Below, one piece after another: positions 3,394-33,155 of a stretch of DNA of 64,000 nt. Position 1 is the stretch's first letter; every line of letters starts with the position of its first letter. The stretch is from Candidatus Peregrinibacteria bacterium (GTDB taxonomy: Bacteria; Patescibacteriota; Gracilibacteria; UBA1369; UBA12463). The position numbers were made by a program, and so were the translations under genes. The notes under the pieces are model-generated. The model worked only from the letters and a program-made list of their open reading frames with translations, ran no database searches and was not told the DNA's origin. The DNA lies in the NCBI GenBank assembly GCA_037447365.1, contig JBBIGU010000002.1:6678-70677 (forward strand). Direction: 5' to 3'.

Positions 3394-3633
3394 TTATAAT
3401 TCTTTCTTGAGATCGTCGACAGCGTTGACGACGTTTTGAACTTTCTGAATTTTTCGATCGATGTTCTGTTTCGTTTCAAGGATGCTCGTTTTCGTATTTT
3501 CTACCTGCTTTTGCGCTTCTTTGGCTGCGCTTGATGCGCCCTGTTGTACATTTGTTCTGAAAGACTCAAGTTGACTACATCCGCTTACAAGAAGCGAACT
3601 CGCTACAAGAAGAATGAAAAAAGAAGTTTTCAC
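3394..3633 (-). CDS. small lipoprotein (start uncertain)
   Basis: The ORF-track version starts at a TTG (3711) that overlaps the upstream gene. An internal GTG at 3633 gives KTSFFILLVASSLLVSG|C, a signal peptide plus lipobox, followed by a coiled-coil-like tail. Confidence 0.5.
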   Translation of the reverse strand: MKTSFFILLVASSLLVSGCSQLESFRTNVQQGASSAAKEAQKQVENTKTSILETKQNIDRKIQKVQNVVNAVDDLKKEL

Positions 3634-3676
3634 GTGCGCAATGATAGCACTCCTATTTTCTTGAATAAAGAAGTTT

Positions 3677-3994
3677 TTAATTCTTCGTGAGATACAGGAA
3701 AAGTACTCCAAAAATCAATATGACAGCAAATCCCACCATCCAGATCGTTATATATGCCATGCTCATCATTTTTACTACCTTTCCTATTTTTTGCGTATTT
3801 TCGCCTGGGTCTTTCTTTCCAAAGATACCCGGTTTAATGGCCTTTGCAATAAACATGGCTCCAAGTAAATAAAAAAGGATTGTTAGTGCGATATCTATTG
3901 GTTTTCCATCAAGCCCATATGATTTCTTCGTGGCTTCTAGCCCGATCATAATAAGACCAAGAATGATCAGCTGAATACGATTTACAGTTTTCAT
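3677..3994 (-). CDS. small integral membrane protein
   Basis: The ORF-track version (to 4111) overlaps the gltX 3' end. The ATG at 3994 (MKTVNRIQLIILGL...) sits 2 nt after the gltX stop and gives a 105-aa protein with three hydrophobic helices. Confidence 0.55.
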   Translation of the reverse strand: MKTVNRIQLIILGLIMIGLEATKKSYGLDGKPIDIALTILFYLLGAMFIAKAIKPGIFGKKDPGENTQKIGKVVKMMSMAYITIWMVGFAVILIFGVLFLYLTKN

Positions 3995-3996
3995 AC

Positions 3997-5487
3997 TTAG
4001 AGATGAATATTTGTTAATCGAGATAGAGTTTCTCTTTTTCCAAGTGCCCAAATGACTTCGAAGACACCAGGAGAGAACTGCTCGCCAGTTAAAATGGCGC
4101 GTACTGGCCAAAAAACCTGACCATTTTTGAGACCAAGTTTTGCGACGATGCCCACGAGTGCAACTTTGATATTTTCTTCAGTCCATTGCTCTTCTGAGAG
4201 TTCTGAGATAGTTGCGATAACCTCTGGTATTACTTGTTTTACGGTTGCTTCCTCGACCTTCATCTTTTCGCTATATACAATATCTGGTTTGAACTGCGGT
4301 GCTACGAAGTAGAATTTGATATAGTCGTTTACTGGTTTAGGATCTTGAATAACCTTCTCTTCAACTGTTTTAAGAGCGCGATCTAACAGTGCTTCTTTGT
4401 CGGCGGTCTTGTACTCAGGTGCGATGTATTCTTCACACTCTTTCAAGAGAATTGCTTTTCGGTTGAGTGGGTTTGCCTCGACTTCTTCGAGGAACTTTCT
4501 TCGTCTCCACTGCCAGTTGTACCAGTCGAGTTTTTCGAGGTTGAAAATTGCGCCTGACTTATGAACGTTGTCTAACGAGAAGTCTTCTATAAGTTCCCGC
4601 ATTGAGTAGATTTCTTTTTCAATACCTTTTCCTGGATGCCAGCCGAGGAAAGCGATGAAGTTGATGATCGCTTCTTGGGTGTAGCCTTTTTGAATGTATT
4701 CTTCTACAGCAACGTCTCCTTGGCGCTTACTGAGTTTGGAGCGGTCGGCATTAAGAAGGAGTGAGAGGTGTGCGTACTGAGGTGGTGTCCATCCGAAGGC
4801 CTGGTAGAGCCAAATATGTTTCGGTGTTGATGGGAGCCACTCTTCACCGCGAATGACGTGCGTGATTTCCATATCATGATCATCGACGACGTTGGCGAGA
4901 TGGTACGTTGGGAAGCCATCAGATTTTACGAGAACCTGGTCGTCGATCGATTTGCTGTCGAATCGAACCTTTCCACGAATAAGATCTTCAATCACAATCA
5001 TTCCTTCCGGGATTTTTTGGCGAATAACGAAAGGCATACCTGCGGCTACTTTTGCATCGACTTCTTCTTTGGTTAATGCACAGCACTTTCGGTTGTACAT
5101 AGGTGCTTCGTGACGGGCCTCTTGTTTACGTCGCATCTCGTCGAGTTCTTCTTGTGTGCAGAAACATTTATACGCATAACCGTTTTCGAGAAGTTGATTT
5201 ACGGCTGCGGTGTATTTGTCATTTCTTTGTGACTGTATGTATGGACCGTGTGGGCCGCCATTGTCTGGACCCTCATCCCAATTGATTCCAAGCCATTTGA
5301 GTGATTTCATGAGATTTTCCATCGCTCCTTCAACAAAACGCTTCTGATCGGTATCTTCGATGCGTAATAGAAATTGTCCGTTATGTTTCTTGGCAAATAA
5401 ATAGGCGTAAAGGGCAGTTCGTGCTCCTCCAACGTGGAGGTAGCCAGTAGGTGATGGTGCGAAACGGGTGCGTACTTGTGAATTCAT
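3997..5487 (-). CDS. gltX: glutamyl-tRNA synthetase
   Basis: 496 aa. RFAPSPTGYLHVGGARTALY (HIGH-class motif) and KLSKRQG (KMSKS-class motif). Confidence 0.93.
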   Translation of the reverse strand: MNSQVRTRFAPSPTGYLHVGGARTALYAYLFAKKHNGQFLLRIEDTDQKRFVEGAMENLMKSLKWLGINWDEGPDNGGPHGPYIQSQRNDKYTAAVNQLLENGYAYKCFCTQEELDEMRRKQEARHEAPMYNRKCCALTKEEVDAKVAAGMPFVIRQKIPEGMIVIEDLIRGKVRFDSKSIDDQVLVKSDGFPTYHLANVVDDHDMEITHVIRGEEWLPSTPKHIWLYQAFGWTPPQYAHLSLLLNADRSKLSKRQGDVAVEEYIQKGYTQEAIINFIAFLGWHPGKGIEKEIYSMRELIEDFSLDNVHKSGAIFNLEKLDWYNWQWRRRKFLEEVEANPLNRKAILLKECEEYIAPEYKTADKEALLDRALKTVEEKVIQDPKPVNDYIKFYFVAPQFKPDIVYSEKMKVEEATVKQVIPEVIATISELSEEQWTEENIKVALVGIVAKLGLKNGQVFWPVRAILTGEQFSPGVFEVIWALGKRETLSRLTNIHL

Positions 5488-5606: not shown

Positions 5607-6092
5607 ATGAGCATATTAGATGCCCCAAGACAATTTGATCCGATGGAACTCCTTACTTTTGAAATGAGGGGCTCAATACAGATTGGAAGAAATGGACTGA
5701 TATATGACTATAAGAATGGTTTCCATGCTGTTTCCGGGTCATTTCAGGTTTATGATGAAATGGGTCAATTTCGCGGAAAGGAAGCTCAAATTGCAGTTGC
5801 CTCGCGTATTGCACAAGCTGCTCGTAATTTTCGTACATATCGAGAATATCTTGTTCCTTGCGTTGCACTTCGTTTCCCTGAGCTTACTTTGGATGAAAAA
5901 CAAGCAATGCTTGAATGTCTTTTTACATTGGCCCCTGAGAACGGGGGAAATTCTCTCGGTTCACGGCTCGATGCATTAAGTCAGCAACTACAAGCTGAAT
6001 TTTGTGCGCATGCGGATGATGTTGAATCCCTACGAGAAATTGTTCGTCGGTATTCATCTGTATTTTTTAGCTACTTTCCGGGTAATAATTGA
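5607..6092 (+). CDS. hypothetical protein (161 aa)
   Basis: The track ORF begins at TTG 5598; the first ATG is at 5607. No recognisable motif. Divergent from gltX. Confidence 0.5.
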   Translation: MSILDAPRQFDPMELLTFEMRGSIQIGRNGLIYDYKNGFHAVSGSFQVYDEMGQFRGKEAQIAVASRIAQAARNFRTYREYLVPCVALRFPELTLDEKQAMLECLFTLAPENGGNSLGSRLDALSQQLQAEFCAHADDVESLREIVRRYSSVFFSYFPGNN

Positions 6093-6176
6093 TATATCTT
6101 TTTTGTTCCCGCGTTTTTGGATTAGCGTCACGGCTTCCCCTTGTCCCCATAAGCCAAAAACTGGTATACTCCTCTC

Positions 6177-8597
6177 GTGGCTAAACGAAGAAAACGATCA
6201 ACATCAGCTTTGGAAAGACGAGGAAGTACCCGTAAGCGCAAGTCGCGGGGTGCTTCGAGGGCGCTTGCTTTTGAGGTAAAATCGACCGTTGCACGAGATA
6301 TTTCGGCGGTTGTCTACTTTTTAATTGCTGCCGTGATGGTCTTGAGCCTTCAGGGTAATTTTGGTGTGGTTGGCGATATGTTAACGGGAATTTTTCGACC
6401 AACACTTGGATATGGTGTTTGGCTTATTCCGCTTATTTTTGGAGCAACTTCCTTGATGCTCTTCTTTTCTAAATCTATAGAATTTGGATTTTCCAGGGTT
6501 GTCGGTATTGGAACTTTAACGGTTTCCATTTTGAGTATTCTTCATTTGTATGTTGATGTAAATGAACTTCATTCTGCAGCTAGTGGTGGACAGTATGGAG
6601 GATATGTTGGATTCGTGATGAATTTTTTGATGCGTGGTGTTTTGCAGATTGGGCATGTTGGAGCAAGCATTGTGTTTATTGCGATGTTCTTGATTGGAAC
6701 GATGCTTACGTTGCAAGTTTCCTTGAGTCAGATTTTCTCTTTCCTTCGAGGAAGTTTGGCTATTAGGAAGATTATGGTTGAGTCGGCTGAAGATGAGGAA
6801 GAGGACTCAGAAAGCGAAGAGGATGATGATCCCGAAATTTTTATTCGAAAGAATCAACTTGCTGACGAGGTACTTGCTGATCTTGCGAGCAAGGTTCAGG
6901 CGGGTGCTTACGATGAGGCTGAGCGCGTGAAGACTCTTCGTATTGATATGAATGAGCATAGAGGAGAAGAGGATATTATTTTACAAGAGGTTAAGCCCGA
7001 GAAGACAAAGAAAGCGAAAAAAGAAGGTGCAATTGCAGAAGGTGCTGCTACAGAAGAGGCGACAGAAGTTGATCCAGAGACAGGTGAGATTATTGTTAAG
7101 GATAATACCGAGGTTGAAAAGGCCGATGAGGTTCCAGAGTTTTTCTGGGAATATCCTTCACTTGATTTACTGAATCCTGCTGTAAAATCTGCGAGAGTTG
7201 ATGAGGCGATGCTTCGTGATACAGCTGAAAAGATTAAGAGCAAACTCAAACAGTTTGATATTGATGTTGTGATGCATGAGGTCAATGTTGGTCCGACGGT
7301 TGTCCAGTATACATTGCGTCCGCATGAAGGCGTAAAGCTTTCGAAAATTACGAATTTAAAAAATGATATTGCCCTTGCCCTTGCAGCGAAGGCGATTCGT
7401 ATTGAGGCGCCAATTCCTGGAAAGTCCCTCGTTGGTATTGAGATTCCAAATGATAAACGAACAGCGGTTCATCTTCGAGAAATTCTCGAGAGTAAGGAGT
7501 TTGCTGAAGTTGATTCTAATTTACGTTTTCCGATTGGACGAGATGTTTCCGGTAAACCGGTCATTGGAGATTTGGCTTCCATGCCACATCTTTTGATTGC
7601 TGGTAGTACGGGTTCCGGTAAGTCTGTTGGAATGAATACATTATTAATGTCACTCATTTACCAGAATGGTCCGGATGAGTTGAAGTTGATTATGGTTGAT
7701 CCAAAACGAGTTGAATTGGATTTGTATAATGGTATTCCCCATTTACTTACACCAGTTATTACCGAGCCGGAAAAGGCCGCTATTGCTTTGCGTTGGGCTG
7801 TTGCTGAAATGACACGACGATATAAGATACTGTCTGTTGCTCGTCAGCGAAATATTGCTGATTACATGGCTGCACTTGGTCCTGATGATGTTAGTGAGAG
7901 ATTGCCAAAGATTGTCGTCGTGATCGATGAGCTCGCCGACCTTATGATGACCGCAAAAAATGAAGTAGAGGCTTCCATCTGTCGGCTCGCCCAGATGGCC
8001 CGTGCCGTTGGAATTCATTTGGTTATCGCGACGCAGCGTCCGAGTGTCGATGTCATTACTGGTTTGATTAAGGCGAATATTCCTTCTCGTATTTCGTTTG
8101 CAGTGAGTTCGTCGATCGATTCTCGAACGATTATTGATTCGATTGGTGCGGAAGATCTTCTTGGAAAGGGTGATATGTTGTATTTGCCGGGCGGCATGGC
8201 TAAGCCACAGCGTGTCCAGGGTATCTATGTATCTACTGCTGAGATTGAGCGGGTTACGAATCATGCAAAGACGACCATGCCGCCTCAATACGATGAGGCT
8301 GTGACAAATCGTAAGACTGCCGATGAGTCGGTAATGGGTGTTCCTGATTCAAAATTTGCGACACCGGAGGAAGATATGGACGATGATCAGATGGTGAAAG
8401 AGGCGATTAAGCTTGTTATTGAAAGTCGTAAGGCTTCGGCAAGTCTTCTCCAGCGACGTTTGAAGGTTGGTTATGCGCGCGCAGCACGCCTCCTCGACGT
8501 GATGGAAGAGCGTGGCTACATTGGTCCTTCTCAGGGCGCTAAGGCCCGTGAAATCTACGTCAATGATGTTCCGGCTGATGTTCCTGAGGAGATCTAA
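6177..8597 (+). CDS. ftsK: DNA translocase FtsK/SpoIIIE
   Basis: 806 aa with a GTG start. Has N-terminal TM helices, an acidic linker (ESAEDEEEDSESEEDDD), Walker A GSTGSGKSVG, Walker B DELADLMM and the C-terminal gamma winged helix LLQRRLKVGYARAARLLDVME. Confidence 0.9.
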   Translation: MAKRRKRSTSALERRGSTRKRKSRGASRALAFEVKSTVARDISAVVYFLIAAVMVLSLQGNFGVVGDMLTGIFRPTLGYGVWLIPLIFGATSLMLFFSKSIEFGFSRVVGIGTLTVSILSILHLYVDVNELHSAASGGQYGGYVGFVMNFLMRGVLQIGHVGASIVFIAMFLIGTMLTLQVSLSQIFSFLRGSLAIRKIMVESAEDEEEDSESEEDDDPEIFIRKNQLADEVLADLASKVQAGAYDEAERVKTLRIDMNEHRGEEDIILQEVKPEKTKKAKKEGAIAEGAATEEATEVDPETGEIIVKDNTEVEKADEVPEFFWEYPSLDLLNPAVKSARVDEAMLRDTAEKIKSKLKQFDIDVVMHEVNVGPTVVQYTLRPHEGVKLSKITNLKNDIALALAAKAIRIEAPIPGKSLVGIEIPNDKRTAVHLREILESKEFAEVDSNLRFPIGRDVSGKPVIGDLASMPHLLIAGSTGSGKSVGMNTLLMSLIYQNGPDELKLIMVDPKRVELDLYNGIPHLLTPVITEPEKAAIALRWAVAEMTRRYKILSVARQRNIADYMAALGPDDVSERLPKIVVVIDELADLMMTAKNEVEASICRLAQMARAVGIHLVIATQRPSVDVITGLIKANIPSRISFAVSSSIDSRTIIDSIGAEDLLGKGDMLYLPGGMAKPQRVQGIYVSTAEIERVTNHAKTTMPPQYDEAVTNRKTADESVMGVPDSKFATPEEDMDDDQMVKEAIKLVIESRKASASLLQRRLKVGYARAARLLDVMEERGYIGPSQGAKAREIYVNDVPADVPEEI

Positions 8598-16168: not shown

Positions 16169-16631
16169 TACTGGAATGTTCTCTATAAGCCGAGTTCTGT
16201 ACACGGAAGCTTCATTGCTGAGGCTGCCGTGAGACGACTATCTATCTAGGCCCATGATCACTCATAAGCTCATGCAGTGGAGAAGAGAAGGACGGTCGGA
16301 ACCGACGTTTGGAGCACTTTCGTACACGTATCCTTTCTTCCCAGCCACCTTGCACCACCTAGGGTTTGCCACTGAGATTTTGTTGCCCTGAAATCAGAGT
16401 CCCCAAGAATCCCACTCCGCCTGAGGCGGACTTTTCACCTTTTGTTCTTCAATGTTTAAAGACTGAAGAACGAGTATTGTCTCTGTGGTACTTTCCCTTG
16501 CCCCATATTACTATGAGACCGACAGGCGTTACCTGCTAAGCGTTCCGATGGTGCTCGGACTTTCCTCTACGCGAGTTGCGAAGCGACTTGCGCCTGCTCC
16601 CGCATAGCAATCGTCAAAGAACATTCCAGTA
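16169..16631 (-). ncRNA. rnpB: RNase P RNA (bacterial type A-like)
   Basis: The minus strand reads GAGGAAAGUCCGAGCACC (P4 5' strand), GGUAACGCCUG, GAAAGUACCACAGAGA and ACAGAACUCGGCUUAU (P4 3' strand). The 14-nt terminal arms UACUGGAAUGUUCU and AGAACAUUCCAGUA form P1. No ORF covers this 640-nt gap. Confidence 0.85.
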
Positions 16632-16637
16632 CATGCT

Positions 16638-16666
16638 AGTATGCACCTTTTTTGGCTGTTTGACAA
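16638..16666 (-). promoter_or_regulatory. putative promoter for rnpB
   Basis: Minus-strand TTGTCA (16661-16666), about 17 nt of spacer, then CATACT/ATACTA with an adjacent TG, a few nt upstream of the P1 5' arm. Confidence 0.3.
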
Positions 16667-16685
16667 GTTACCGGCTTCTTTTATT

Positions 16686-16707
16686 CTAAAAATCCCTGCC
16701 CGGGCAG
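16686..16707 (-). terminator. weak intrinsic terminator after the 872-aa gene
   Basis: Minus strand: CTGCCCGGGCAG hairpin followed by GGATTTTTAG. Confidence 0.4.
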
Positions 16708-16772
16708 AAATTTAGCTTCAAATTTGACACGGTTTTGAAATGAATTCTTCCTTGTTCATAAGGGATGTATCG

Positions 16773-19391
16773 CTATTTGATCTTCACTTTTGGATGAAGC
16801 ATTTCTGTACCATCAATTCTGCTTACTCCATACATTTTTCCTTTATCTCTCGGAGGTATGCTTCCGATATTATAGCTGAGCCTGTTTGGGCCTCCTGTCG
16901 TTTCAACCCATTCGTATTTTCGCCCTTCTAATTCGAATGCTGTTCCCGGTCCATCGATATCGCATGCTATTGCTTGATGATCCGGAAGGTATATGAATAC
17001 GCAATCAATTCCTACCGCTCTTGCGAGGGTTGCTGTCATAATGCTTGAATCTTCACAATCACCCCCTCTGCTCAAGAGTGACATGAGAAGACTTTTTGGA
17101 GCCTCTTCGTATGCATCTGGTACATAATAGAATGAGTGTACGAAATCTACGATTGCTCGCATCTTGTCTTTCTTGCTCTTGAATTTTTCAGTGATCTGAT
17201 TGGCGATATCTTTCGCAAATGGATCATTATCGAGAATATACAAGCCAGGGTTGATCCATTGACTACCTTCATCTAATTTTATTCTTTCTACTCGTCCTTG
17301 TCCTCTGAGTGCCTTGTTCTGCTCTATCAGTGTTGCGATTTCGACTTTTATCGGAATGGTTATTTTCTTACCTCCTGATGTGAAATGTTGCTCGTAAGCA
17401 ACTTCTTTGTATTCTGGAAGGGCGCTTGGTGGTATCGCAATGCCTTGATCTTCCATGATTGATGGGGGCAGTCTTAAGTTGCCTTTATCATCTACAATCT
17501 TGAACTTTTTGTCTTTTGTTTCGGTAACATATCTGTTTTCGGTATTTCTTTCGTCTTTTTCTGTTTTTCCAGTTAATGTTGTTTCTACTGAGAGATTTTT
17601 TGCGTTTGAATCTTTGTAACGTATGGTGTTGATTTTTCCTTTTTCGTCCGCAGCAATTTCTATTGCATTTGGATTTAGCTGAATGTTAAATGAAAAATCA
17701 AAACTGGTAACGAGAATTGCTTTTATCGCTTCGATATCCTTTGGATTATTTGCTTTGTAAATCGTTATATCATTGAAAAGATCGACAAGCCTTTGTCCGC
17801 CTTTTACTTTTCCGATTCTTGGAGGAAGTTTTGTATTTGTCCTCTCGTCGAATGGCTTGAATATGAACGCATGGTATGGGAATTTGTATTGTGGTCTATT
17901 TTTGAAATTAAATGGAACGTCTTTTGTGATAAAAAGTGTTTGTGCAAATGCCCGATTTCCAGTAACGGTATTAAAGATATATTTATCAAAGTGATCTTTA
18001 AATGCCATGAGCATGTTGAGGCCTTCCAGTTTTACTCTTTCTTGATCAAGAAACTCTGGCCTGTTCGGATCTCGTGGTGGCTCATCAATGTGCTTTTCTT
18101 CAGGTTTTGTGACGGGGGCTTTTTCGCTTTTTTTAAAGAGCCCTTCGATTTTGTCGTGGGTGAGTGCTCCAATTGCTAAAACGGCTGCAGTTCCAAGAGC
18201 CAGTATGGCATTTTTGTTGCTCTTCTTTGGGTGACTACTTTCAGATGGTTTTTTCTGTGGTTGATGTACTGGTTCTTCAGCGTTTGCATCTCCGGGTCTT
18301 TGGGATTGTGGAGGAGTTATAATCGTGGTCGTAGTGTTGACATTCGCATTTGTGGACAACATTTCTACTATTTTCTTTTTTGTGTTTTTCCCGAAGCGTT
18401 TCGTTTTTATGTCGTTTGGATCGGTGGCAAGGTTGTTTGCGAGTTTGAATCTTACAAGAGCATCTTCTGTTTTTGGTCCGAAGTTTCCGTTTGGAGCAAC
18501 GGTCATGTAACCCAGTATAAGCAAGGCGTTTTGCAACATCAGAACGTCGTTTCCGTGCATTCCTCTTCCGAGGTCTCGGGTAATTCCGTTTATTCCTTCT
18601 GCGAGATATTTCTTTTTCTCGGGCAGGGACATTGCCTCGAAAGATCCATGAGCATTTAGAGGATTTGCTGCCGTTGGCTTCCTCCCATCATTATTAAAAT
18701 CACTAAATAGATCTGCGATGAAGTTGAATAAATCAGTTCCTCGTGGTGCCTCATTTTTTAAATAATATATAAATGCTACTGGTTCTGTTGGCCAATTATT
18801 GGCTTGAAGCAGCGCTTGATTTTTGTCGAGCATTTTCTTGAGCGTTTCTTCATGATAAGCGAATAATGCTCCGCTTGCGGTTCCGCTTTCTTCGAAAGTT
18901 AGTAAAAGTGTCTTGACGCCATTTTTTGCAAGATGCACTCGATACTGCTCCATGTTTCCAATTTGACCAACTTCTATAAGCGATTTAATTGCCATCCACC
19001 CGAGCGGTTTTTTTGGACCTACCCTTTCTAAGTCTGACAAGCATTTCACTCTTTCTGCTTCTTTGTATTCAGCCATTGTTCCTACTGGATAGGTACCTTG
19101 AATATATATAGGATTTTCCTCCTCTTTTGAGTTTTGCAATATGATACATGTTGTACTTTGAGTTCCGTTTGGATTTACTACTGAAACATATATTCTCTGG
19201 TGTTTTGATCTTTCTTCTGTAGTGAGTACAACTTTAGCATCTTTTGTTTTCAACTCTTGGATTTCCTCCATTAATCGGTGATCATTCCATCCCAAAAAGA
19301 TCGATAATTCAGCTATCGCATCTTCTGGTGACATGGGCCTATTACATGAAAGTGAGTTTGATGGGGTGAGCATGTGACTATATTTACCCAA
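16773..19391 (-). CDS. large bitopic membrane protein: unknown N-domain, PG_binding_1-like repeat, one TM helix, unknown beta-rich region, transglutaminase-like cysteine-protease core
   Basis: 872 aa. The PG-binding-like segment is GMHGNDVLMLQNALLILGYMTVAPNGNFGPKTEDALVRFKL (residues about 272-322). The single hydrophobic helix is AILALGTAAVLAIGAL (about 395-411). The C-terminal core GGDCEDSSIMTATLARAVGIDCVFIYLPDHQAIACDID (Cys779) is transglutaminase-like. The start is uncertain: TTG 19391, ATG 19373 or ATG 19334. Confidence 0.75.
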   Translation of the reverse strand: MGKYSHMLTPSNSLSCNRPMSPEDAIAELSIFLGWNDHRLMEEIQELKTKDAKVVLTTEERSKHQRIYVSVVNPNGTQSTTCIILQNSKEEENPIYIQGTYPVGTMAEYKEAERVKCLSDLERVGPKKPLGWMAIKSLIEVGQIGNMEQYRVHLAKNGVKTLLLTFEESGTASGALFAYHEETLKKMLDKNQALLQANNWPTEPVAFIYYLKNEAPRGTDLFNFIADLFSDFNNDGRKPTAANPLNAHGSFEAMSLPEKKKYLAEGINGITRDLGRGMHGNDVLMLQNALLILGYMTVAPNGNFGPKTEDALVRFKLANNLATDPNDIKTKRFGKNTKKKIVEMLSTNANVNTTTTIITPPQSQRPGDANAEEPVHQPQKKPSESSHPKKSNKNAILALGTAAVLAIGALTHDKIEGLFKKSEKAPVTKPEEKHIDEPPRDPNRPEFLDQERVKLEGLNMLMAFKDHFDKYIFNTVTGNRAFAQTLFITKDVPFNFKNRPQYKFPYHAFIFKPFDERTNTKLPPRIGKVKGGQRLVDLFNDITIYKANNPKDIEAIKAILVTSFDFSFNIQLNPNAIEIAADEKGKINTIRYKDSNAKNLSVETTLTGKTEKDERNTENRYVTETKDKKFKIVDDKGNLRLPPSIMEDQGIAIPPSALPEYKEVAYEQHFTSGGKKITIPIKVEIATLIEQNKALRGQGRVERIKLDEGSQWINPGLYILDNDPFAKDIANQITEKFKSKKDKMRAIVDFVHSFYYVPDAYEEAPKSLLMSLLSRGGDCEDSSIMTATLARAVGIDCVFIYLPDHQAIACDIDGPGTAFELEGRKYEWVETTGGPNRLSYNIGSIPPRDKGKMYGVSRIDGTEMLHPKVKIK

Positions 19392-19788
19392 ATATTCTCT
19401 TGAACCAAGCGCGAGGACCTGATTCTTTTTTCTGCGTTTGCGATGGAGTTATCCGAGCCATTACCAAAGTATCTTCTTTTTCTTGGTTTTGTATTGTCAT
19501 TAATTGTTTTCGTCTTTCCTCTACATAGCCTCGCATCGCCTGAAGATCTTGTTCTGAAAGGTTGTTTGGATTTCTCTGCACAAAATCCTCAACTTCTTTT
19601 ATTTCATTTTCTATATAAGGTATATCTCCTTCATCCATTACGAGAGGGGCGGCATTGATCACAATTCCACTTTCTCTTGTTGTATATTTTTGCATCAATG
19701 AAAGAAGTCGCTGGTGTGGTCGAATTCCTACGACGTAGACTCGTTCTCCATCTGATTCAATATTGTCGCTAGGTTGGTTTGCACCCAT
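19384..19788 (-). CDS. hypothetical protein (134 aa)
   Basis: The track ORF (to 19905) overlaps the TPR gene. ATG 19788 (MGANQPSD...) avoids that overlap. The stop abuts or overlaps the 872-aa gene start. The C-terminus PRAWFKRIFG looks amphipathic. Confidence 0.5.
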   Translation of the reverse strand: MGANQPSDNIESDGERVYVVGIRPHQRLLSLMQKYTTRESGIVINAAPLVMDEGDIPYIENEIKEVEDFVQRNPNNLSEQDLQAMRGYVEERRKQLMTIQNQEKEDTLVMARITPSQTQKKESGPRAWFKRIFG

Positions 19789-19817
19789 GTGATTTTTTGT
19801 AATGTATTGTTTCTGTT

Positions 19818-20438
19818 TTATTCCTGTTCCGCTGCAGCGTCGCCACTCAACTGTCCCTTTAACTTGCCATATTCCATGGCGAAGAACTTTACGGCGTTGA
19901 GACATTCGCGGGCTTTTGTGTTTTCTGGGTCTAATACAAGTACCTTTGTGAACATGCGCATAGCGCGTTCGAAGTTTTTCTCATTCATATAGAGGACGCC
20001 GAGATCGGTCAAGATCAGTGCGTCGTTTGGGGCGAGGTTCAATGCTCGTTCTAACAAGATAACTCCTTGTCGTTTTTCACCGTTGTGATAAATGCTCCAG
20101 CCGAGGCATCGGAGAATTTCTGGGTGGTTTGGGAAGAGCTCTTCTGCTTTTTCGAGATATTCGATAGATGTCTTCCACTTTCCCATGCAAGAGTAGACGA
20201 ATCCCATGAGATAGTTTCCGTTTGGACTCTGTGGGTCGAGGGCAATAGCTCGGTCGAGTGCACGCTTCGCCTTCTGATATTCACGAAGAGTGAGATAGTT
20301 GTCGGCAATTTCTTCGTACGCCTCTGTGAAGTCGAGATCGTAGTTGAGAATTCTCTCGCAAATTTTGATTGCCTCCTGGTGATCGCCATGTTGCTTCTTT
20401 GCTTCAGCCTCCTCGAGCAGCGATTGCATATCGTACAT
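19818..20438 (-). CDS. tetratricopeptide-repeat protein
   Basis: 206 aa made of five to six 34-residue repeats with the TPR pattern, for example AIKICERILNYDLDFTEAYEEIADNYLTLREYQKAKRALDRAIALDP. Confidence 0.8.
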   Translation of the reverse strand: MYDMQSLLEEAEAKKQHGDHQEAIKICERILNYDLDFTEAYEEIADNYLTLREYQKAKRALDRAIALDPQSPNGNYLMGFVYSCMGKWKTSIEYLEKAEELFPNHPEILRCLGWSIYHNGEKRQGVILLERALNLAPNDALILTDLGVLYMNEKNFERAMRMFTKVLVLDPENTKARECLNAVKFFAMEYGKLKGQLSGDAAAEQE

Positions 20439-20535
20439 AGAAATTTTTGTTTAGATTTTTATTTTGGATTTTGATGCGTTGGCTGGAGTTCGTTTTTCTT
20501 TTTTGCTTCGCGAACCTCAATCAATGCATCTAAGT

Positions 20536-20564
20536 ATAATAGCAGAAAATGCGTTTTCTTTCAA
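20536..20564 (-). promoter_or_regulatory. putative sigma70-type promoter for the TPR / 134-aa / 872-aa unit
   Basis: Minus-strand TTGAAA (20559-20564), a 17-nt spacer, then TATTAT (20536-20541), about 100 nt upstream of the TPR ATG. Confidence 0.4.
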
Positions 20565-20735
20565 GAACGACAGGGTCGTTATGTGCATAACTCCCTCAGG
20601 TGCTCTTGCTAAAAATTATGGAAGATTTCTAATGCGAATTTTTGATACGTACGGAGGCGCAAGTGCGTGCGCACAGAAATAAACATCCTATTATATGATT
20701 TGTAGATTGTTTGCCTTTTTGAAGCTGAAATTGTA

Positions 20736-22061
20736 TTAAGCTGGCTGGTAGTTGATGGCTTCGAGCATCTTTGGACTTAACTTGGAATATTCTTTCCATT
20801 TGAGATGTGGATTGTCTGCTCCTCCAAAGAGCTGTTCGATGCGATGACCTGGATTGTTTGGATCTTCGGTCATGGCGTATGTGTCCATTACTGAAAAATT
20901 TCCTGTTTTTGCAGCTTCTTCTTTGAGCCATGCATTATAAGCCGCGCGAGTTGGTTTGTTTGATGAATATTTTCCAGGTGCCATGAGCGTCCCAACTTTA
21001 ATTTTTGCATTTGGATTTATACTTTTAATTGCACTGATCATAAGATAAAAATTGTCCTGCATTTTTTTTAGAGGATAACCTTCTTTTCCTGCTAAATTAT
21101 TTCCACCACACTGAAATACAATGGTATCTGCATTTTTAATTGCTTGTCGATCTTGTTCTGGAAGTGCTCTGATGTGGGCTGCAATACTCTGCATGGTTTT
21201 TCCTACATAATCAAAAGATCGTATGCCTCTTTTTGCGAGACTTCCCTTGAGACCTTGAACCTGTGAGTCACCAATGAAAACAGGGGAGCGTGATATGAAT
21301 CGCTCATTCGACTCCCTTCCTTGTACTAATGGTGGTTCGACGCGTGCTGCTTGAGCGGGTGTTTGTTCTGCTGCTAATGGCGCTGCCACTGCTGGTGGTG
21401 TGAGTTTCTCGCTTCCACGAAGTCCTGCCTGTGCGCTGTGTGCTTCTCCGACAGTTGCTTGTACTTTTTGTATGGAATCTTTTTCTAATTTTATTGCGCT
21501 CTCCATTTGCTTGGCATCGAATGGCATGATGTCTTTGTAGGCGATGAAGAGTTTGGTTCCGGTGAAACTCGACATGTATTTATTTTTCTTTGATCGATAT
21601 TCGCCGCCACGTGTTCCTGGTGAGCGTTTTGCTTCCGTGCCTTTATTTTCTCCACCGAAAGAGACGTTAGTTGCATTTGGTGGGAAGAGGTGGCCGGCAC
21701 CAATGCCTTTTTGTTCAGCAAATGCGAGTTTGCCGAAATCGAGCGTGACGTTCATTCCTTTTTCTCCGAACTCAATATTTTTTCCAATGATAGCGAGAAG
21801 TTCGGCTTGAGGCTGTAGTCGAAGTTGTTCTTTTTTCTGATCGTCACTGAGACTTGGATCACTGTCGATTTTCTGCAAAGCTTCGGCAACTTTTTTTTGC
21901 TGCTCGGGATTGCTTCGAATAGATACGACCTTGTCGATGAATTCGCGAAAGGCACCACCCTTTTTCAAGGCATCTATTTTTTCCATACGTTCCAGTCCTT
22001 TGAAACCAGAAATGTCTTTTGGTTGTTCGGGTGCTTTTTGTTGCGCTTCTGGTCCGGCCAT
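20736..22061 (-). CDS. SGNH/GDSL-type hydrolase fused to a large unknown N-terminal region
   Basis: 441 aa. The C-terminal third carries FIGDSQV (block I), QCGGNNL (block III) and GGADNPHL (block V-like). No signal peptide or TM helix is evident. Confidence 0.65.
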   Translation of the reverse strand: MAGPEAQQKAPEQPKDISGFKGLERMEKIDALKKGGAFREFIDKVVSIRSNPEQQKKVAEALQKIDSDPSLSDDQKKEQLRLQPQAELLAIIGKNIEFGEKGMNVTLDFGKLAFAEQKGIGAGHLFPPNATNVSFGGENKGTEAKRSPGTRGGEYRSKKNKYMSSFTGTKLFIAYKDIMPFDAKQMESAIKLEKDSIQKVQATVGEAHSAQAGLRGSEKLTPPAVAAPLAAEQTPAQAARVEPPLVQGRESNERFISRSPVFIGDSQVQGLKGSLAKRGIRSFDYVGKTMQSIAAHIRALPEQDRQAIKNADTIVFQCGGNNLAGKEGYPLKKMQDNFYLMISAIKSINPNAKIKVGTLMAPGKYSSNKPTRAAYNAWLKEEAAKTGNFSVMDTYAMTEDPNNPGHRIEQLFGGADNPHLKWKEYSKLSPKMLEAINYQPA

Positions 22062-22160: not shown

Positions 22161-22478
22161 TTATAAATCTACCTTTTCTCCGACTGCATCTCGGGTTCCT
22201 TGTGTGAGGCTTGAAAAATCCAGATCAGGGATTTGCGGTCGATCTCTTGGTGTCATAGGTGGTATTCGAGTTCGTGGGCCACGCATTCTTTCTTGTTGAT
22301 CGAGGTGCCTTACGAAATCTTCCATTCCAGTTGTTTTTGTAGGATCATAGGGTGTTTGATCATTTCCTGGTTCATCAGCCATTGCACTTTGAAATAACCG
22401 AGCACTTGTGCTGAGTCTTGGTGATTTCGCTGTGTCTACATTTCCGATTCCGTCGTCAGAAGGACCTCTTTCATCCAT
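22161..22478 (-). CDS. hypothetical Pro/Asp/Arg-rich, probably disordered protein (105 aa)
   Basis: ATG ORF filling the gap between galU and the SGNH gene on the same strand. Low-complexity composition with no motif. Confidence 0.4.
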   Translation of the reverse strand: MDERGPSDDGIGNVDTAKSPRLSTSARLFQSAMADEPGNDQTPYDPTKTTGMEDFVRHLDQQERMRGPRTRIPPMTPRDRPQIPDLDFSSLTQGTRDAVGEKVDL

Positions 22479-28879: not shown

Positions 28880-28901
28880 TCGTAATATGTAGATATATTT
28901 T

Positions 28902-30122
28902 ATGGAATCTTTCGAGTCACAATCATTACAGACTGGTTCGTCATTACAAGACAACTCATCGTCTTCTATTCTTCAAAATGTTTCTGAAAAGCCAGTAGAA
29001 GAGATTGTATATGGTGTGTACGATAATTCTCGCGCGAATGTTTTTCGCCAGCTTAATGATTTTCTCATTGATCATAGTAAAGTAAGTCTCAAGGAAAAAT
29101 CGTATGTTTTTTATTTATTGTCGGTGATGGTGGATAGCGGCGTTCCACTTATTCAGTCACTTCGAATTGTGGCTCGTCGAACCACAAGTGAACGCATGCG
29201 ACGAGTACTCTTTACGGTCGCTTTTGATGTGGAAAAAGGTAAAAATTTTGCCGACAGTCTTGCTCGATTTCCAGATGTTTTTGAAGAATTTGAAATTGGA
29301 GTTATTCGGAGTGGTGAAGTTTCTGGTCATTTAGATAGAATGCTCTCTCGTCTTGCTACTGAAGTTGAAGATGCTTATGACCTTCAATCTCAATTGTGGA
29401 GCGCAGCGTTTTACCCAATCACTGTCTTTGCCGTTTTGCTTGTTGTTGGATTTGGTGTGATGACATTTCTAGTTCCGCGAATTCTTGGTTTTTCTCAGGA
29501 CTTGATTGGTACTGGACGTGAGCTTCCTTCAGCAACACAGGTACTTATTAGTACTCAGCATATTATTACAAATTATTGGTGGTTGTTGTTCCTTCTCGTT
29601 TTTGGTGGATATGGACTTTGGAATTTTTATGTTAAAACTGGAACAGGTAAGTTGCAGTGGGATCTTTTTGTTTTGAAATTTCCGGTTCTTGGAATGCTCC
29701 GAAGAAAAATATATGTTCTTCGAATTATTCGATTACTTGCGATTCTTCTTGAGTCTGGACTTCCAATTCTCGTAACACTCAAAATGGTTGCCAAGAGTAT
29801 TCCAAATGAAATATATAAATTGAAATTATGGGATGCCATGAATCAGGTTCAGCAGGGCGGAAAACTACACTCTGCTTTTCAAGATAACTCATTCTTGTTT
29901 CCAGAAGAGGTGACATCGATGCTTGCTATTGGTGAACAGTCTGCGACTATTGCACAGAGTGCGAGTCGTGCTGCTACTCAGTATGAAAAAGAAATTAAAC
30001 ATACATTAAAAAAGCTTACGACGATTTTTGAGCCGGCACTTATTATTATTGCCGGTATCTTCGTTGCCGTGATGGCGCTCGCTGTTTTGATGCCTATCTT
30101 CGATCTTACGAGTCAGATTTAA
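28902..30122 (+). CDS. pilC: type IV pilus platform protein PilC (GspF family)
   Basis: 406 aa. Two internal T2SS-F repeats, each followed by TM helices, and a typical C-terminal ...LMPIFDL. Confidence 0.85.
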   Translation: MESFESQSLQTGSSLQDNSSSSILQNVSEKPVEEIVYGVYDNSRANVFRQLNDFLIDHSKVSLKEKSYVFYLLSVMVDSGVPLIQSLRIVARRTTSERMRRVLFTVAFDVEKGKNFADSLARFPDVFEEFEIGVIRSGEVSGHLDRMLSRLATEVEDAYDLQSQLWSAAFYPITVFAVLLVVGFGVMTFLVPRILGFSQDLIGTGRELPSATQVLISTQHIITNYWWLLFLLVFGGYGLWNFYVKTGTGKLQWDLFVLKFPVLGMLRRKIYVLRIIRLLAILLESGLPILVTLKMVAKSIPNEIYKLKLWDAMNQVQQGGKLHSAFQDNSFLFPEEVTSMLAIGEQSATIAQSASRAATQYEKEIKHTLKKLTTIFEPALIIIAGIFVAVMALAVLMPIFDLTSQI

Positions 30123-30139
30123 TTTCACCTCAATGTCAC

Positions 30140-30697
30140 ATGCCTTCTCTCAAACATCAACAACATAGAGGCTTTACACTTATCGAACTTGTCATTGTTA
30201 TAGCAATTATCGGTATTATTGTTGCAATGTCCTTGTCGAGTTATATGGGTTATCGAAAGAGTATTGCGTTGTCGTTGGCTGTCGATTCATTGCAGTCTGC
30301 TGTGAAACAAATTCAGCAGCAAGCACGTTCAGGCAAAACCTTTGACGGTACGATACCTTGTTATGGTCTTCTTTTTGAGCAGGGAAAACCGGTTCATTTT
30401 GTGACGGCAGCATACCAAAAAACAAGCGGAAAAAATACATCCGCTGATCAGATTTGTACCCAGGAGAAAATTGAAAATTTAATTCCCCTCATGGATGGAA
30501 TAAATGTTGTTGGTTTTGATTCTTCAATCAACATGCGTGTTTTTGCCACTCCGCCTCGAGGAGATATTGTAACTTCCGGTCTTGATATTAATGCTTCTTC
30601 AATTCATTTTCGACTTCAATTTGGAAGTGATAGTACAAAATCGGTTTCCGTAAAAATGAATCTTCCATTTGGTATTTTGCAACGAGATCAGCTCTAA
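30140..30697 (+). CDS. type IV prepilin (candidate major pilin)
   Basis: Leader MPSLKHQQHRG followed by FTLIELVIVIAIIGIIVAM, with the prepilin peptidase site G|F and Glu at +5. Confidence 0.8.
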   Translation: MPSLKHQQHRGFTLIELVIVIAIIGIIVAMSLSSYMGYRKSIALSLAVDSLQSAVKQIQQQARSGKTFDGTIPCYGLLFEQGKPVHFVTAAYQKTSGKNTSADQICTQEKIENLIPLMDGINVVGFDSSINMRVFATPPRGDIVTSGLDINASSIHFRLQFGSDSTKSVSVKMNLPFGILQRDQL

Positions 30698-30703
30698 TAT
30701 TTT

Positions 30704-31369
30704 ATGAAACATTTTCTTACACATTTTCGACTTTATATTCAATCGCCATCTCATACACGTGATGGATTTACGCTTCTTGAGCTTATTATTAGTTTTGCGG
30801 TTATGTCGATTGTCGTCTTTGGTGTGACGAGTTTATATGTAACATCTATTCGTTCTAATGCTGCGCAGGTTGATCGTTTTATTGCCTATAATCTTGCTCA
30901 AGAAGGACTTGAAGGTGTTCGAAATATTCGTGACACCTACTTCCGTCAGTCGCTTCCTTGGGATGGAAGTGATACTTCTGTTTCTTTGGTTGATAAGCCA
31001 TTTATTGATGGAACATATATTATTTCACGAAAGATTTCTCTTCCGATTGTTCAGTCATTTCAATCTGAGAATAAAGAGTCAGTTAAAAGTAGCATTCCTT
31101 GGATTTTTAAGTCCTTGAGCCAAAAAGACGATAGTCTTATTTACGAAGTTCATGCACAGGAAAATACGGGAATTCCATATTATGTTCATAAAATGGATTC
31201 ACTTCCTGCGGACAGTACGCCAACCATGTATCGTAGATCCATTACGCTTTCCAAGATTGATCAAAATCGAATTTTAGTTACGGCGCATGTTGAATGGAGT
31301 GATCATGGAAACCAAAAATCTCTCGATCTTGCAACAGAACTTACCAATTGGAAACAACGACCATTCTAA
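30704..31369 (+). CDS. prepilin-type minor pilin
   Basis: Long leader ending ...HTRDG followed by FTLLELIISFAVMSIVVFGV, with Glu at +5. Confidence 0.75.
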   Translation: MKHFLTHFRLYIQSPSHTRDGFTLLELIISFAVMSIVVFGVTSLYVTSIRSNAAQVDRFIAYNLAQEGLEGVRNIRDTYFRQSLPWDGSDTSVSLVDKPFIDGTYIISRKISLPIVQSFQSENKESVKSSIPWIFKSLSQKDDSLIYEVHAQENTGIPYYVHKMDSLPADSTPTMYRRSITLSKIDQNRILVTAHVEWSDHGNQKSLDLATELTNWKQRPF

Positions 31370-31376
31370 TATCTTT

Positions 31377-32021
31377 ATGAAATTTTCTTTATTAACTAGT
31401 CGGGTGAATCGTAGTAAACAAAAGGGTTTCACTCTCATTGAAATCCTGGTCTCCTTGTCGATTTTTTTGATCTTGCTTGGCGTACTGATGACTTCGTTCT
31501 TTCAGCTCTACAAAGCACAGCGTGATGCGAATGATGTTCGAAAAGTTGTTGCTGATTTGCGTACCCTTACCAATTTTGTTCAGGACGAAATGAGGACAAA
31601 AACAATTGATTTTTATTCATATAATCCCACGTATCGTCTTTCTTTTGATACTCCGCAGCATGTTTTGTATCTCACCGATAAAAATGGAACGCATCAGACG
31701 ACCATTACATTTATTCCTTCTCAGAAGGGTAGTGTTAGTGGTGAAAATGGCGGTAGTGTTGTTTTTACAAAGCAGGTTCGGGTTGATAAGGATCATAGTT
31801 GGAGTGCCGATTCTGGTTTTGCCGGTGATCCAAAAAAGATCTCTATTCCACATGTTCAATTAAAAGACGTTTCGTTTTCTCTTGCTCCGATGGGTGATCC
31901 TAATGCAAGTCTTGATAATCTTCGTGACAGTACTTTGCAAATGCAGCCATCGGTTACAATGCATGTTCGATTTGGAAATAATTATTATCTGCAAACTACT
32001 TTTTCCTCACGTGTTTACTAA
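31377..32021 (+). CDS. prepilin-type minor pilin
   Basis: The track ORF starts at 31287 inside the upstream gene. ATG 31377 gives MKFSLLTSRVNRSKQKG followed by FTLIEILVSLSIFLILLGV. Confidence 0.75.
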   Translation: MKFSLLTSRVNRSKQKGFTLIEILVSLSIFLILLGVLMTSFFQLYKAQRDANDVRKVVADLRTLTNFVQDEMRTKTIDFYSYNPTYRLSFDTPQHVLYLTDKNGTHQTTITFIPSQKGSVSGENGGSVVFTKQVRVDKDHSWSADSGFAGDPKKISIPHVQLKDVSFSLAPMGDPNASLDNLRDSTLQMQPSVTMHVRFGNNYYLQTTFSSRVY

Positions 32022-32024
32022 CTC

Positions 32025-33155
32025 ATGAATATTTTTACTTCACATCGACGGGGAAGTGCATTGATTACCACACTCTTGGTAACTGCACTCATTATGCTTA
32101 CTGCCGTTGGACTTGCTCAGTTGATTACTGGCGATATTCGAACGGGAGGGGAGTTTGTGCAAGATGGAAAGGCGTTATATATGGCTGAGAGCGGATTGGA
32201 AAGAGGCTTGCTTACCTTGAAAGATCAGCTTCCTGGCTATCAGCCAAAACTTGTAAAAGGTGGTGTTGAGAAAGAGACTCTTTCTTATGAAACTAATTTC
32301 AAGACTCAAGCAAATGATATTCCTCATGTTGAGCCTGGCATGGTGAGTGTTTTCAATAAGGCCGATGCATATAATACACTTGCGGCCCAACATTCTGTTG
32401 CGGTTCCGTTGTTTACTGTTGATGACGCTGGTGTGGCTCATAATATTCAAGACTTCCTCGTAAAATATTATGTTCCATTTGATCTTTCAAAAAATATTGC
32501 AGGATCTCAATTGCAAGATATTGATTTCTTCCGATGGAAGATTGTTGGTATTGCGCATGATACAAAAAAAGCTGAGTCAGTAAGCGACTTTACGTCCGCT
32601 TCTGATTTTGCTATCGCCGAGAAGCCAAACTGTTTTGGAACCTCAAAAGAAAAAGTTCAGGAGAAGTTTTCTGATATTATTCCTGACTGCATTCCCGATA
32701 TGGTGAAGTCTTCTACGGATGTGCAGAATTGCCAATATAACCAAGCTCGATCGTATTACAAATACACAGTAAAGACTTCCTATGATGGCTTCGAGGATAG
32801 CGCTCCTATTGAAGTTCTTGATACTCCTTGTTATGCGATTGCTGATTTTCTTGCGAATCATGATCAGAATTACTTGATCCTTACGAATCTCGTGAATCCC
32901 GATATCATTCAGGCGCTGAGTCCTGATGCTCAGGCCGCCCTCTCTTACATTAAATATCGTGTTATCACTACGGAGCCAGTTTTGCGAGATAAGGTGACTA
33001 TAGAATCGACCGGAAATTCTGGTGGTATTCTTGGTGGGGTTGGCGCTGCTCTCCTTGGTGGCTCTACTAAAAAGCTCGATCTTCAGCTTTCTGGAGATGC
33101 TTTTTTGCCAGTCTTTAACTTCTCAATCTACCAGACGGATTTGAAGAAGAAGTAG
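32025..33155 (+). CDS. PilX-like pilus-associated protein
   Basis: 376 aa. N-terminus RRGSALITTLLVTALIMLTAVGLAQL...ALYMAESGLERGL resembles the PilX N-terminal domain, with no Glu at +5. Last gene of the pilin cluster. Confidence 0.55.
   Translation: MNIFTSHRRGSALITTLLVTALIMLTAVGLAQLITGDIRTGGEFVQDGKALYMAESGLERGLLTLKDQLPGYQPKLVKGGVEKETLSYETNFKTQANDIPHVEPGMVSVFNKADAYNTLAAQHSVAVPLFTVDDAGVAHNIQDFLVKYYVPFDLSKNIAGSQLQDIDFFRWKIVGIAHDTKKAESVSDFTSASDFAIAEKPNCFGTSKEKVQEKFSDIIPDCIPDMVKSSTDVQNCQYNQARSYYKYTVKTSYDGFEDSAPIEVLDTPCYAIADFLANHDQNYLILTNLVNPDIIQALSPDAQAALSYIKYRVITTEPVLRDKVTIESTGNSGGILGGVGAALLGGSTKKLDLQLSGDAFLPVFNFSIYQTDLKKK

Follow-up and report, generated by a model that had tools for sequence, protein, structure and literature searches.

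LapG is an enzyme under inside-out control, in which a membrane protein links its activity to a cytoplasmic signal. PeiP and PeiW are pseudomurein endoisopeptidases, which cut peptide bonds of the cell wall. AmiR of Caulobacter crescentus is an AmpD-like cytoplasmic muropeptide amidase fused to the domain PG_binding_1 (PMC13046382), and MinD attaches to membranes by means of a C-terminal amphipathic helix (PMC8155659). In this report these systems are compared with a locus of a Candidatus Peregrinibacteria bacterium (GenBank assembly GCA_037447365.1), located on a stretch of 64,000 nucleotides (nt) of contig JBBIGU010000002.1 that is referred to as the window. Three genes lie upstream of rnpB on the reverse strand and encode a tetratricopeptide repeat (TPR) protein, a protein of 134 amino acids (aa), p134, and a membrane protein of 866 aa (the large protein). 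The locus is probably a young, lineage-specific unit on an older two-gene core, and in it a fused surface cysteine peptidase would be tethered to a cytoplasmic assembly.

A two-gene core upstream of rnpB and its additions

Five related Gracilibacteria/Peregrinibacteria genomes share a core that consists of a promoter, the TPR gene and the gene of an N-domain of ~233 aa, directly upstream of rnpB. Two additions are found in the clade of the window. The orphan gene p134 is present between the core genes, and a peptidoglycan (PG)-binding module, a membrane anchor and a transglutaminase-like module are fused in frame to the N-domain. The loci without these additions are L017, from a Peregrinibacteria genome (FtsH 81% and TPR 78% identical), and L019 (TPR 89% identical). 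Both contain the gene of an SGNH hydrolase, the TPR gene, a gap of 12–17 nt, the gene of a free-standing N-domain protein of 200–235 aa and the conserved block preceding rnpB. The free-standing protein covers residues 1–232 of the large protein at 72–79% identity (the 866-aa numbering is used unless stated otherwise). The free-standing orthologues end at ...NNDGRK, which is the exact start of the PG-binding module in the fused proteins. Neither synteny tables nor tblastn revealed p134, the PG-binding module, the membrane segment or the enzyme in L017 and L019, and there is no room for them. rnpB itself was detected in L017, and the contig of L019 ends inside the rnpB promoter.

Besides the window, the complete trio is carried only by L001/L002, with a large protein of 78% identity, and by L004. 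In the close relatives the order FtsH-HSP20-GalU-p105-SGNH-TPR-p134-large protein-rnpB-sugar transferase-SecA is collinear and the neighbours are 88–100% identical. Since the whole region is syntenic, synteny is uninformative at this distance. The 78%-identical orthologue of the large protein is P0002. An assembly chimera was considered as origin of the fusion and rejected, since independent assemblies show the same architecture and purifying selection acts on every segment. With a word-index search, the homologues of the large protein and p134 that were reached did not extend beyond genus-level relatives. A scan with one genome for each species yielded one partial relative. For p134, the word-index search returned only three homologues (73–100% identity), and a hidden Markov model of p134 detected no further homologue among all open reading frames (ORFs) of 31 loci and the window. 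No paralogues of these genes were found within the window.

Stand-alone homologues of the enzyme half (44–49% identity) are present in L007, L008 and L009, and those of L007 and L008 begin with lipoprotein signals. In L007 the neighbours are an HtrA-like protease and an ABC transporter, in L008 a ComF-like protein and glycosyltransferases. Up to 10 kb around these two homologues there is no gene for TPR, p134 or the N-domain. The context of the distant N-domain members varies as well and comprises phosphoenolpyruvate carboxylase and ferredoxin, glycosyltransferases, PspC and an RNase_T-family exonuclease, or a PIN-MazE pair. More likely, p134 and the enzyme half were gained rather than lost, because the features are missing from both outgroups, the enzyme occurs as a free-standing protein elsewhere, another family contains a near-identical PG-binding module and p134 is an orphan.

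The original prediction described the three genes as a dedicated, self-contained module of scaffold, small adaptor and envelope-spanning enzyme. Tight spacing, common orientation and one conserved promoter agree with a co-evolved machine for the envelope or for cell-cell interaction, in which the TPR scaffold, the 134-aa adaptor and the enzyme form an obligate complex. The same holds for the predicted location of all non-enzyme parts on the cytoplasmic side and for the distribution of p134, which occurs at each of the three loci that bear the fusion and cover its position (window, L001/L002 and L004) and absent from both relatives without the fusion. Nevertheless, such a machine is unlikely. 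A lack of co-occurrence of the trio in related genomes had been named beforehand as a refutation, and the trio was found only in very close genomes, where the whole region is syntenic. L017 and L019 keep TPR and N-domain without p134 or enzyme, the enzyme homologues of L007 and L008 occur without the other components, and the stand-alone enzymes have unrelated neighbours. Furthermore, the evolutionary rates are unequal, with ratios of nonsynonymous to synonymous substitution rates (dN/dS, pairwise against the orthologous locus L001) of 0.04 for TPR, 0.24 for p134 and 0.10 for the large gene overall. What remains of the original description is a compact unit in which cytoplasmic accessories plausibly accompany a membrane-spanning enzyme; a conserved, dedicated module was not recovered.

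In L001/L004 the TPR protein is 98–99.5% identical, and FtsH, GalU, HSP20 and TPR range from 97 to 100% in close relatives, compared with 73–84% for p134 and the large protein. The neighbours FtsH, HSP20, GalU and SecA have dN/dS values of 0.013–0.04 against L001, and segments of the large gene have values of 0.045–0.26. The TPR protein thus evolves like a housekeeping gene, whereas p134 and the large protein (0.10–0.24) evolve much faster than the neighbouring genes. Judged by these ratios, all three genes are real, protein-coding and under purifying selection.

The unequal identities would also fit neighbours that are together by descent only, with a housekeeping TPR protein, a marginal young orphan p134 and a fusion that merely anchors a surface peptidase, all without functional coupling. 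This explanation is in line with the lack of p134 homologues beyond one genus-level group and with the N-domain neighbourhoods, which differ at every distant locus examined. It is possible, but we do not expect it to hold. The adjacency of TPR and N-domain and their shared promoter are retained in five genomes, down to a TPR identity of 78%. Moreover, the dN/dS of p134 corresponds to purifying selection and its C-terminal helix is kept, and the in-frame fusion is retained with every segment constrained.

Modules and topology of the large protein

In the large protein, a cytoplasmic protein whose predicted fold has no match in the Protein Data Bank (PDB) is most likely fused to a transglutaminase-like peptidase that is anchored in the membrane and faces outwards. 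Three independently distributed modules were distinguished with an exhaustive HMMER search of 1.84 billion representative proteins. The core of the N-domain (residues ~100–233) matches many small free-standing proteins (126–235 aa, 30–47% identity), and such relatives make up 39 of the best 150 HMMER representatives. The family is characterized by the motif VGPxKPLGYLP...GLKT...GALYAYDE...WPTxP...LFdliADAFgDxxNxGR, and its named members are from Peregrinibacteria and Roizmanbacteria genomes. There is no Pfam or NCBIfam model for it. Sub-threshold hits to the uncharacterised family DUF3793 (PF12672) were obtained for 10 of 35 family members (best E = 1.7e-4, cut-off 25.1 bits), and the copy in the window gave no hit. 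None of 48 members contains a hydrophobic 19-mer (Kyte-Doolittle value of at least 1.6). Accordingly, the family is regarded as cytoplasmic.

The AlphaFold model of residues 1–240, based on an alignment of 21 sequences, has a mean predicted local distance difference test (pLDDT) value of 91.1. Its first part (residues 1–95) is a subdomain of helices and four strands and is specific to the close lineage. The second part (residues 100–225) is an alpha/beta core that corresponds to the widespread family. Foldseek found no match of this model in the PDB and a viral library (BFVD) at E ≤ 0.001, and the best TM-score was 0.27. In a sequence search of the PDB, the large protein matched only PG-binding domains and the N-domain profile matched nothing significant. 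Remote homology searches with an N-terminal domain of ~270 aa had been proposed originally; they led to a family of small free-standing proteins, not to a PDB fold. The literature on Gracilibacteria and transglutaminases and that on DUF3793 was searched and nothing relevant was found.

As a side observation, members of the N-domain family are located near RNA-processing genes in three unrelated contexts, namely rnpB (window), Rpr2 and an RNase_T-family exonuclease. In L029–L031, the N-domain gene (~5001–5417) is accompanied by the RNase P subunit Rpr2 (3494–3808) on a contig that looks archaeal, and this neighbour suggests that the family reaches archaea. In L027, an RNase_T-family gene (6440–7099) follows the N-domain gene (6001–6435) 5 nt downstream. 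A link of the N-domain family to RNase P or tRNA processing was considered, but three heterogeneous cases, which may be coincidence, are too few to make it more than an observation.

The domain PG_binding_1 (PF01471) was detected with 35.5 bits (cut-off 23), and the module aligns to the binding domain of the phiKZ gp144 endolysin. BLASTP gives 82% identity between the module and the N-terminus of P0003 and P0004, trypsin-like peptidases from Gracilibacteria genomes. The pairwise identities of the core module are all 88–91%, whether the copies are orthologous or paralogous (large proteins, P0003, P0004; L003 3970–4293). This star-like pattern suggests a recent exchange of the module or gene conversion between two families of ectoenzymes. 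P0003 and P0004 lack a signal peptide, and their module is followed by an Arg-rich stretch, then by a membrane segment and the protease, which is the arrangement expected of membrane-anchored HtrA-type enzymes. P0055 has a 47%-identical copy of the module at its N-terminus and contains neither a signal peptide nor a membrane segment.

The PG-binding module is N-terminal to the membrane segment and contiguous with the signal-less cytoplasmic family, no signal peptide is present and the charge bias favours the N-in orientation. Most likely, the module is cytoplasmic and can neither bind the sacculus nor anchor the protein to the wall.

The sole hydrophobic segment of the large protein is NAILALGTAAVLAIGALTH. 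Its N-terminal flank, KKPSESSHPKKSNKN, has a net charge of ~+4 (including KKSNK) and its C-terminal flank of ~+1. The alignment matches it to signal or lipoprotein segments in the stand-alone homologues, which start with RR- or KK-flanked hydrophobic segments. Several of these homologues contain lipoboxes (VNVAC, SAGAC, LIGC, ASAC, LGGC in L008 and LSAC in L007), and RRAIL...VNVAC and RRGFL...SAGAC are examples with twin arginines. The N-domain is joined to the PG-binding module without an intervening hydrophobic segment. Based on the signal peptides of the homologues, the signal-less N-domain family and the charge distribution, a type II topology is predicted with residues 1–387 in the cytoplasm and residues 407–866 outside. 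A bitopic protein with PG-binding-like and transglutaminase-like modules had been proposed, in agreement with the one membrane segment and with both Pfam hits above cut-off.

In the inverted topology, the N-terminal 387 residues would be outside with PG_binding_1 on the wall and the transglutaminase-like domain in the cytoplasm. PG_binding_1 is usually extracytoplasmic, the typical multi-repeat hits to it carry signal peptides (P0023, P0087 and P0119), and the membrane segment is moderately hydrophobic. Nevertheless, this topology is highly improbable. The protein has no N-terminal signal peptide, and export of a 387-residue tail in this way is not expected. Likewise, none of the 48 members of the N-domain family has a signal peptide, the homologues of the C-terminal module (C-module) carry lipoprotein or twin-arginine-like signals, the charge bias is that of an N-in protein, and with AmiR there is a precedent for a cytoplasmic PG_binding_1 domain.

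Residues ~384–861 match stand-alone proteins of ~520 aa (P0008–P0013 and P0019) at 39–52% identity. Transglut_core (PF01841) is detected with 32.2 bits (cut-off 23) at residues 728–801 in the 872-aa numbering. P0008–P0013 match the same family, and one stand-alone homologue is annotated as 'transglutaminase-like domain-containing protein'. Cys773 and His799 are invariant in an alignment of nine sequences (A4). The Trp-x-Glu motif containing Glu824 is invariant in alignment A5, and one member of A4 has Asp at the third position. The AlphaFold model of the C-terminal 488 residues is confident for residues ~530–866. Foldseek relates the C-module to 3kd4, 3isr, PeiP/PeiW, LapG and PNGase, with probabilities of 0.87–1.00 for 3kd4, 3isr, PeiP, LapG and PNGase and modest E-values (1.5e-4 to 3e-2). 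The conserved triad and the match to the transglutaminase fold indicate that the enzyme is probably active. With this catalytic module, a known superfamily gains a new member.

Few parts of the enzyme family are as conserved as the juxtamembrane stretch DPNRPEFLD...GL..L.A..D.FD.YIFN.VTGN (~17850–18090, residues ~428–505). Its pLDDT values in the AlphaFold model are below 50. This stretch may fold only on a partner or substrate.

Several points weigh against the proposed tethered ectoenzyme on an older core. The hydrophobicity of the membrane segment is no more than moderate (Kyte-Doolittle 1.59, and 1.48 in the orthologue), the third residue of the triad is Glu and not the canonical Asp, and the model of the C-module is poor over its first ~126 residues. 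The direction of gain and loss relies on two outgroup loci, which is thin evidence. Furthermore, conservation of the TPR protein greatly exceeds that of the other two proteins and no distant N-domain member has a TPR neighbour. Thus, the partnership of TPR and N-domain is unproven.

Accessory proteins, boundaries and surroundings

The TPR protein matches the Pfam family TPR_2 at 7.9e-28. A hydropathy scan detected no hydrophobic segment in the TPR protein or in p134, which agrees with the predicted solubility of the former. NCBIfam gave nothing specific. The central part of p134 is predicted to be helical, and its C-terminus is conserved as GPR(A/G)W(F/L)(K/R)RI(F/L)G in all three homologues. 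An amphipathic C-terminus had been postulated for p134. The conserved segment is a candidate for such a helix; its 11-residue hydrophobic moment is not above 0.6 in the scan. No homology of p134 to MinD was detectable and no ATPase domain was found with Pfam and NCBIfam. Searches of PHROGs and PADLOC gave no hits for p134, the N-domain, the C-module, the SGNH hydrolase and p105, except for a borderline PADLOC hit of p134 to REase_II (E 0.008, 13.8 bits). The TPR protein gave generic repeat hits only. An affiliation with phages or anti-phage defence was dismissed, as neither database gave a real match.

The three genes, the promoter and the hairpin were all found where they had been predicted, and Pfam agrees with the domain calls (TPR, PG-binding-like and transglutaminase-like). 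All three genes are co-oriented, with gaps of 29 nt between TPR and p134 and 10 nt between p134 and the large gene. The mechanical ORF of p134 has 173 aa; the MGANQP start, which gives 134 aa, is conserved in three genomes. The N-terminus MLTPSN of the large protein (ATG 19373) is kept in its relatives, including the free-standing orthologue P0160. Most likely, translation therefore starts at ATG 19373 (866 aa) rather than at TTG 19391 (872 aa). With this start there is a 10-nt gap in place of the abutting or overlapping p134 stop that had been described.

Some Gracilibacteria/Peregrinibacteria lineages read UGA as Gly. This alternative code was considered and rejected, since the long housekeeping genes are intact under table 11 without in-frame TGA, and the gene models of table 11 stand. 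Among 47 stop-to-stop ORFs of at least 200 codons in the window, 35 end with TAA, 9 with TAG and 3 with TGA. Two of the TGA-ending ORFs are antisense shadows of galU, and for the third (42955–43872, +) Pfam gave no hit. Out of frame TGA is common, in frame it is absent.

The synonymous divergence (dS) of the large gene against L001 (10001–12616) is 1.16 and reaches ~2.0 in the transglutaminase-like part, estimates above 1 being noisy; the flanking genes have values of 0.48–0.76, about half as high. Allele replacement by recombination or weaker codon constraint could account for the raised values.

The positions of the features are compiled in the following table.

Table 1. Features of the locus and their positions in the window.
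Feature	Position	Strand	Description	Basis
sigma-70-type promoter	20536-20564	-	TTGAAA-17-TATTAT, extended -10 TG	pattern scan and conservation in five genomes
TPR gene	19818-20438	-	206 aa, predicted cytoplasmic	ORF list and Pfam
p134 gene	19384-19788	-	134 aa, lineage-restricted orphan	ORF list and relatives
p134 C-terminal segment, putatively amphipathic	19387-19419	-	GPRAWFKRIFG, putative membrane-targeting helix	
Large gene	16773-19373	-	mosaic bitopic membrane protein (predicted), 866 aa from ATG (872 aa from TTG 19391)	
N-domain	18675-19373	-	residues 1-233	orthologous to free-standing proteins in L017 and L019
PG_binding_1-containing module	18357-18689	-	residues 229-339, predicted cytoplasmic	
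Low-complexity linker	18213-18356	-	residues 340-387, least conserved segment	37% identity to L001
Single membrane segment (putative signal anchor)	18156-18212	-	residues 388-406	Kyte-Doolittle 1.59
Predicted extracytoplasmic module	16776-18155	-	residues 407-866: juxtamembrane stretch, beta-rich middle domain, transglutaminase-like core	
Codons of the putative catalytic triad	16902-17057	-	Cys773 (17055-17057), His799 (16977-16979), Glu824 (16902-16904)	
Conserved palindrome and T-tract	16686-16710	-	TCTGCCCGGGCAG and T-tract, weak terminator or protein-binding site	
rnpB with its own promoter	16169-16666	-	TTGTCA-17-CATACT, downstream boundary of the unit	promoter conserved
rnpB	16169-16600	-		Rfam RF00010, 127 bits

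As a bare pattern the promoter is no better than chance, with 13 sites in 10 kb compared with 17.3 expected from shuffled sequences. Five genomes, among them the divergent L019 and L017, contain the elements CTTG(A/T)AA and TCTGCTAT(T/A)ATA at fixed spacing. The spacers between SGNH and TPR gene of L019 and L017 are otherwise unalignable, yet the promoter blocks are retained. Hence, sequence and position of the promoter proposed originally were verified and comparative support is strong, but the pattern match itself is at chance level. The part of this spacer upstream of the promoter (20565–20735, -) is 89% identical among window, L001 and L004, which is as high as the conservation of coding sequence. 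The same part is unalignable with L019 and L017, and no Rfam family was found there.

The hairpin CTGCCCGGGCAG with its T-tract is present at 16686–16707, as had been predicted, and its palindrome does not vary among five genomes. In the window, the hairpin is weak (-9.2 kcal/mol, z = -0.97), and the T-tract after the palindrome is missing in L001/L005. In L019 the palindrome is embedded in a hairpin of -36.8 kcal/mol, which is followed by a U-tract. Across window, L001, L005, L017 and L019 the block ATCAAATTTGAAGC, the palindrome and the rnpB promoter CTTGTCA-17-CATACT are invariant (16638–16722, -). In four relatives the palindrome is a perfect 14-bp TCTGCCCGGGCAGA. It could be a site for a regulator upstream of rnpB rather than a terminator. 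The unit plausibly consists of the promoter, the three genes and a boundary, followed by the rnpB promoter. With a conserved promoter upstream and that of rnpB downstream, the locus is consistent with the compact, co-oriented unit that had been proposed.

The SGNH/GDSL hydrolase gene (20736–22061, -) encodes 441 aa with an N-terminal region of 280 residues that has neither a family match nor a signal peptide. It is preceded by the 105-aa gene p105 (22161–22478, -), a fast-evolving orphan (67–78% identity, dN/dS 0.21). A type IV pilus cluster is located ~8 kb away (28893–33155, +) and contains a PilC-like T2SSF protein, three proteins with prepilin-type N-methylation motifs and a PilX_N protein.

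Proposed arrangement and comparison with described systems

In the proposed arrangement, the outer module would be a cell-surface cysteine peptidase or transamidase that is held by a signal-anchor helix. By analogy to LapG and PeiP/PeiW, its substrate may be an envelope target such as a wall peptide or a surface protein. The cytoplasmic tail would consist of a protein that is normally free in the cytoplasm next to the TPR protein and of the PG-binding-like module, and the fusion would tether the enzyme to a cytoplasmic assembly, possibly including the TPR protein and p134. p134 may be located on the inner face of the membrane via a MinD-like C-terminal helix, beside the tail of the large protein. 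A complex of the non-enzyme parts at this face is possible, as far as the sequences suggest. Possible ligands of the PG-binding-like module are soluble wall precursors or muropeptides from recycling. Such an arrangement would allow localization or inside-out control of the ectoenzyme, loosely like LapD-LapG.

A more far-reaching proposal combines these elements. The N-domain would be a new cytoplasmic fold of a Pfam-less family that is widespread in ultra-small bacteria and possibly present in one archaeon. Together with a cytoplasmic PG_binding_1 subfamily, it would serve the inside-out control or placement of surface hydrolases by sensing wall precursors or muropeptides, with p134 as a newly born membrane-peripheral partner. 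As a whole this proposal is speculative and rather improbable. If it were true, the fusion would be a 'Rosetta stone' for the function of the N-domain.

The locus illustrates the recent assembly of a multi-domain envelope protein in an uncultivated candidate-phyla lineage. The parts are a free-standing cytoplasmic protein, a shuffled PG-binding module, an anchor and a lipoprotein-type peptidase, and an orphan gene appeared alongside. The fusion gives a first functional hint for a widespread uncharacterised family with a confident but unmatched predicted fold, and it points to a PG_binding_1 subfamily acting on the cytoplasmic side of the membrane. It is also a cautionary example, as synteny among very close genomes mimicked a dedicated module that dissolved slightly further out. 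The enzyme class is already known, and no phenotype or open question hinges on the locus. The combination of an unmatched cytoplasmic fold, a cytoplasmic PG_binding_1 domain and an extracellular transglutaminase-like peptidase appears to be undescribed.

LapG belongs to the BTLCP family (4u65_E is LapG with the LapD output domain) and, like the predicted outer module, is a transglutaminase-fold cysteine peptidase outside the cytoplasmic membrane (Foldseek probability 1.00). In contrast to LapG, the large protein has no Pfam BTLCP hit but only Transglut_core, and the third residue of the triad is Glu. Furthermore, the cytoplasmic part is fused to the enzyme, whereas LapG is controlled by the separate receptor LapD. 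No LapD- or LapA-like genes are among the neighbouring genes scanned.

PeiP and PeiW (8z4f and 8jx4) share the transglutaminase fold and the Cys-His-acid triad with the C-module (Foldseek probability 0.87–0.89 for PeiP and 0.41 for PeiW). The Pei enzymes have wall-binding repeats on the catalytic side, whereas the wall-binding-like domain of the large protein is predicted on the opposite, cytoplasmic side. A Pfam scan detected no pseudomurein-binding repeats in the large protein, and its similarity to the Pei family is confined to the fold.

The stand-alone lipoproteins of Gracilibacteria (P0008–P0013, L007 and L008) are true homologues with the same triad and the same middle domain. They differ in their length of ~520 aa, in the signal or lipoprotein N-terminus, in the lack of N-domain and PG_binding_1 and in their unrelated neighbourhoods.

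AmiR resembles the predicted tail in having PG_binding_1 in the cytoplasm, where only soluble wall fragments and precursors are available. The fusion partner of the domain in AmiR is a cytoplasmic amidase, whereas here the domain is fused across a membrane anchor to an enzyme that is predicted to face outwards. Finally, the C-terminus of E. coli MinD is ...KGFLKRLFGG, and p134 ends in a comparably short basic and aromatic segment, ...AWFKRIFG, for which membrane binding is putative.

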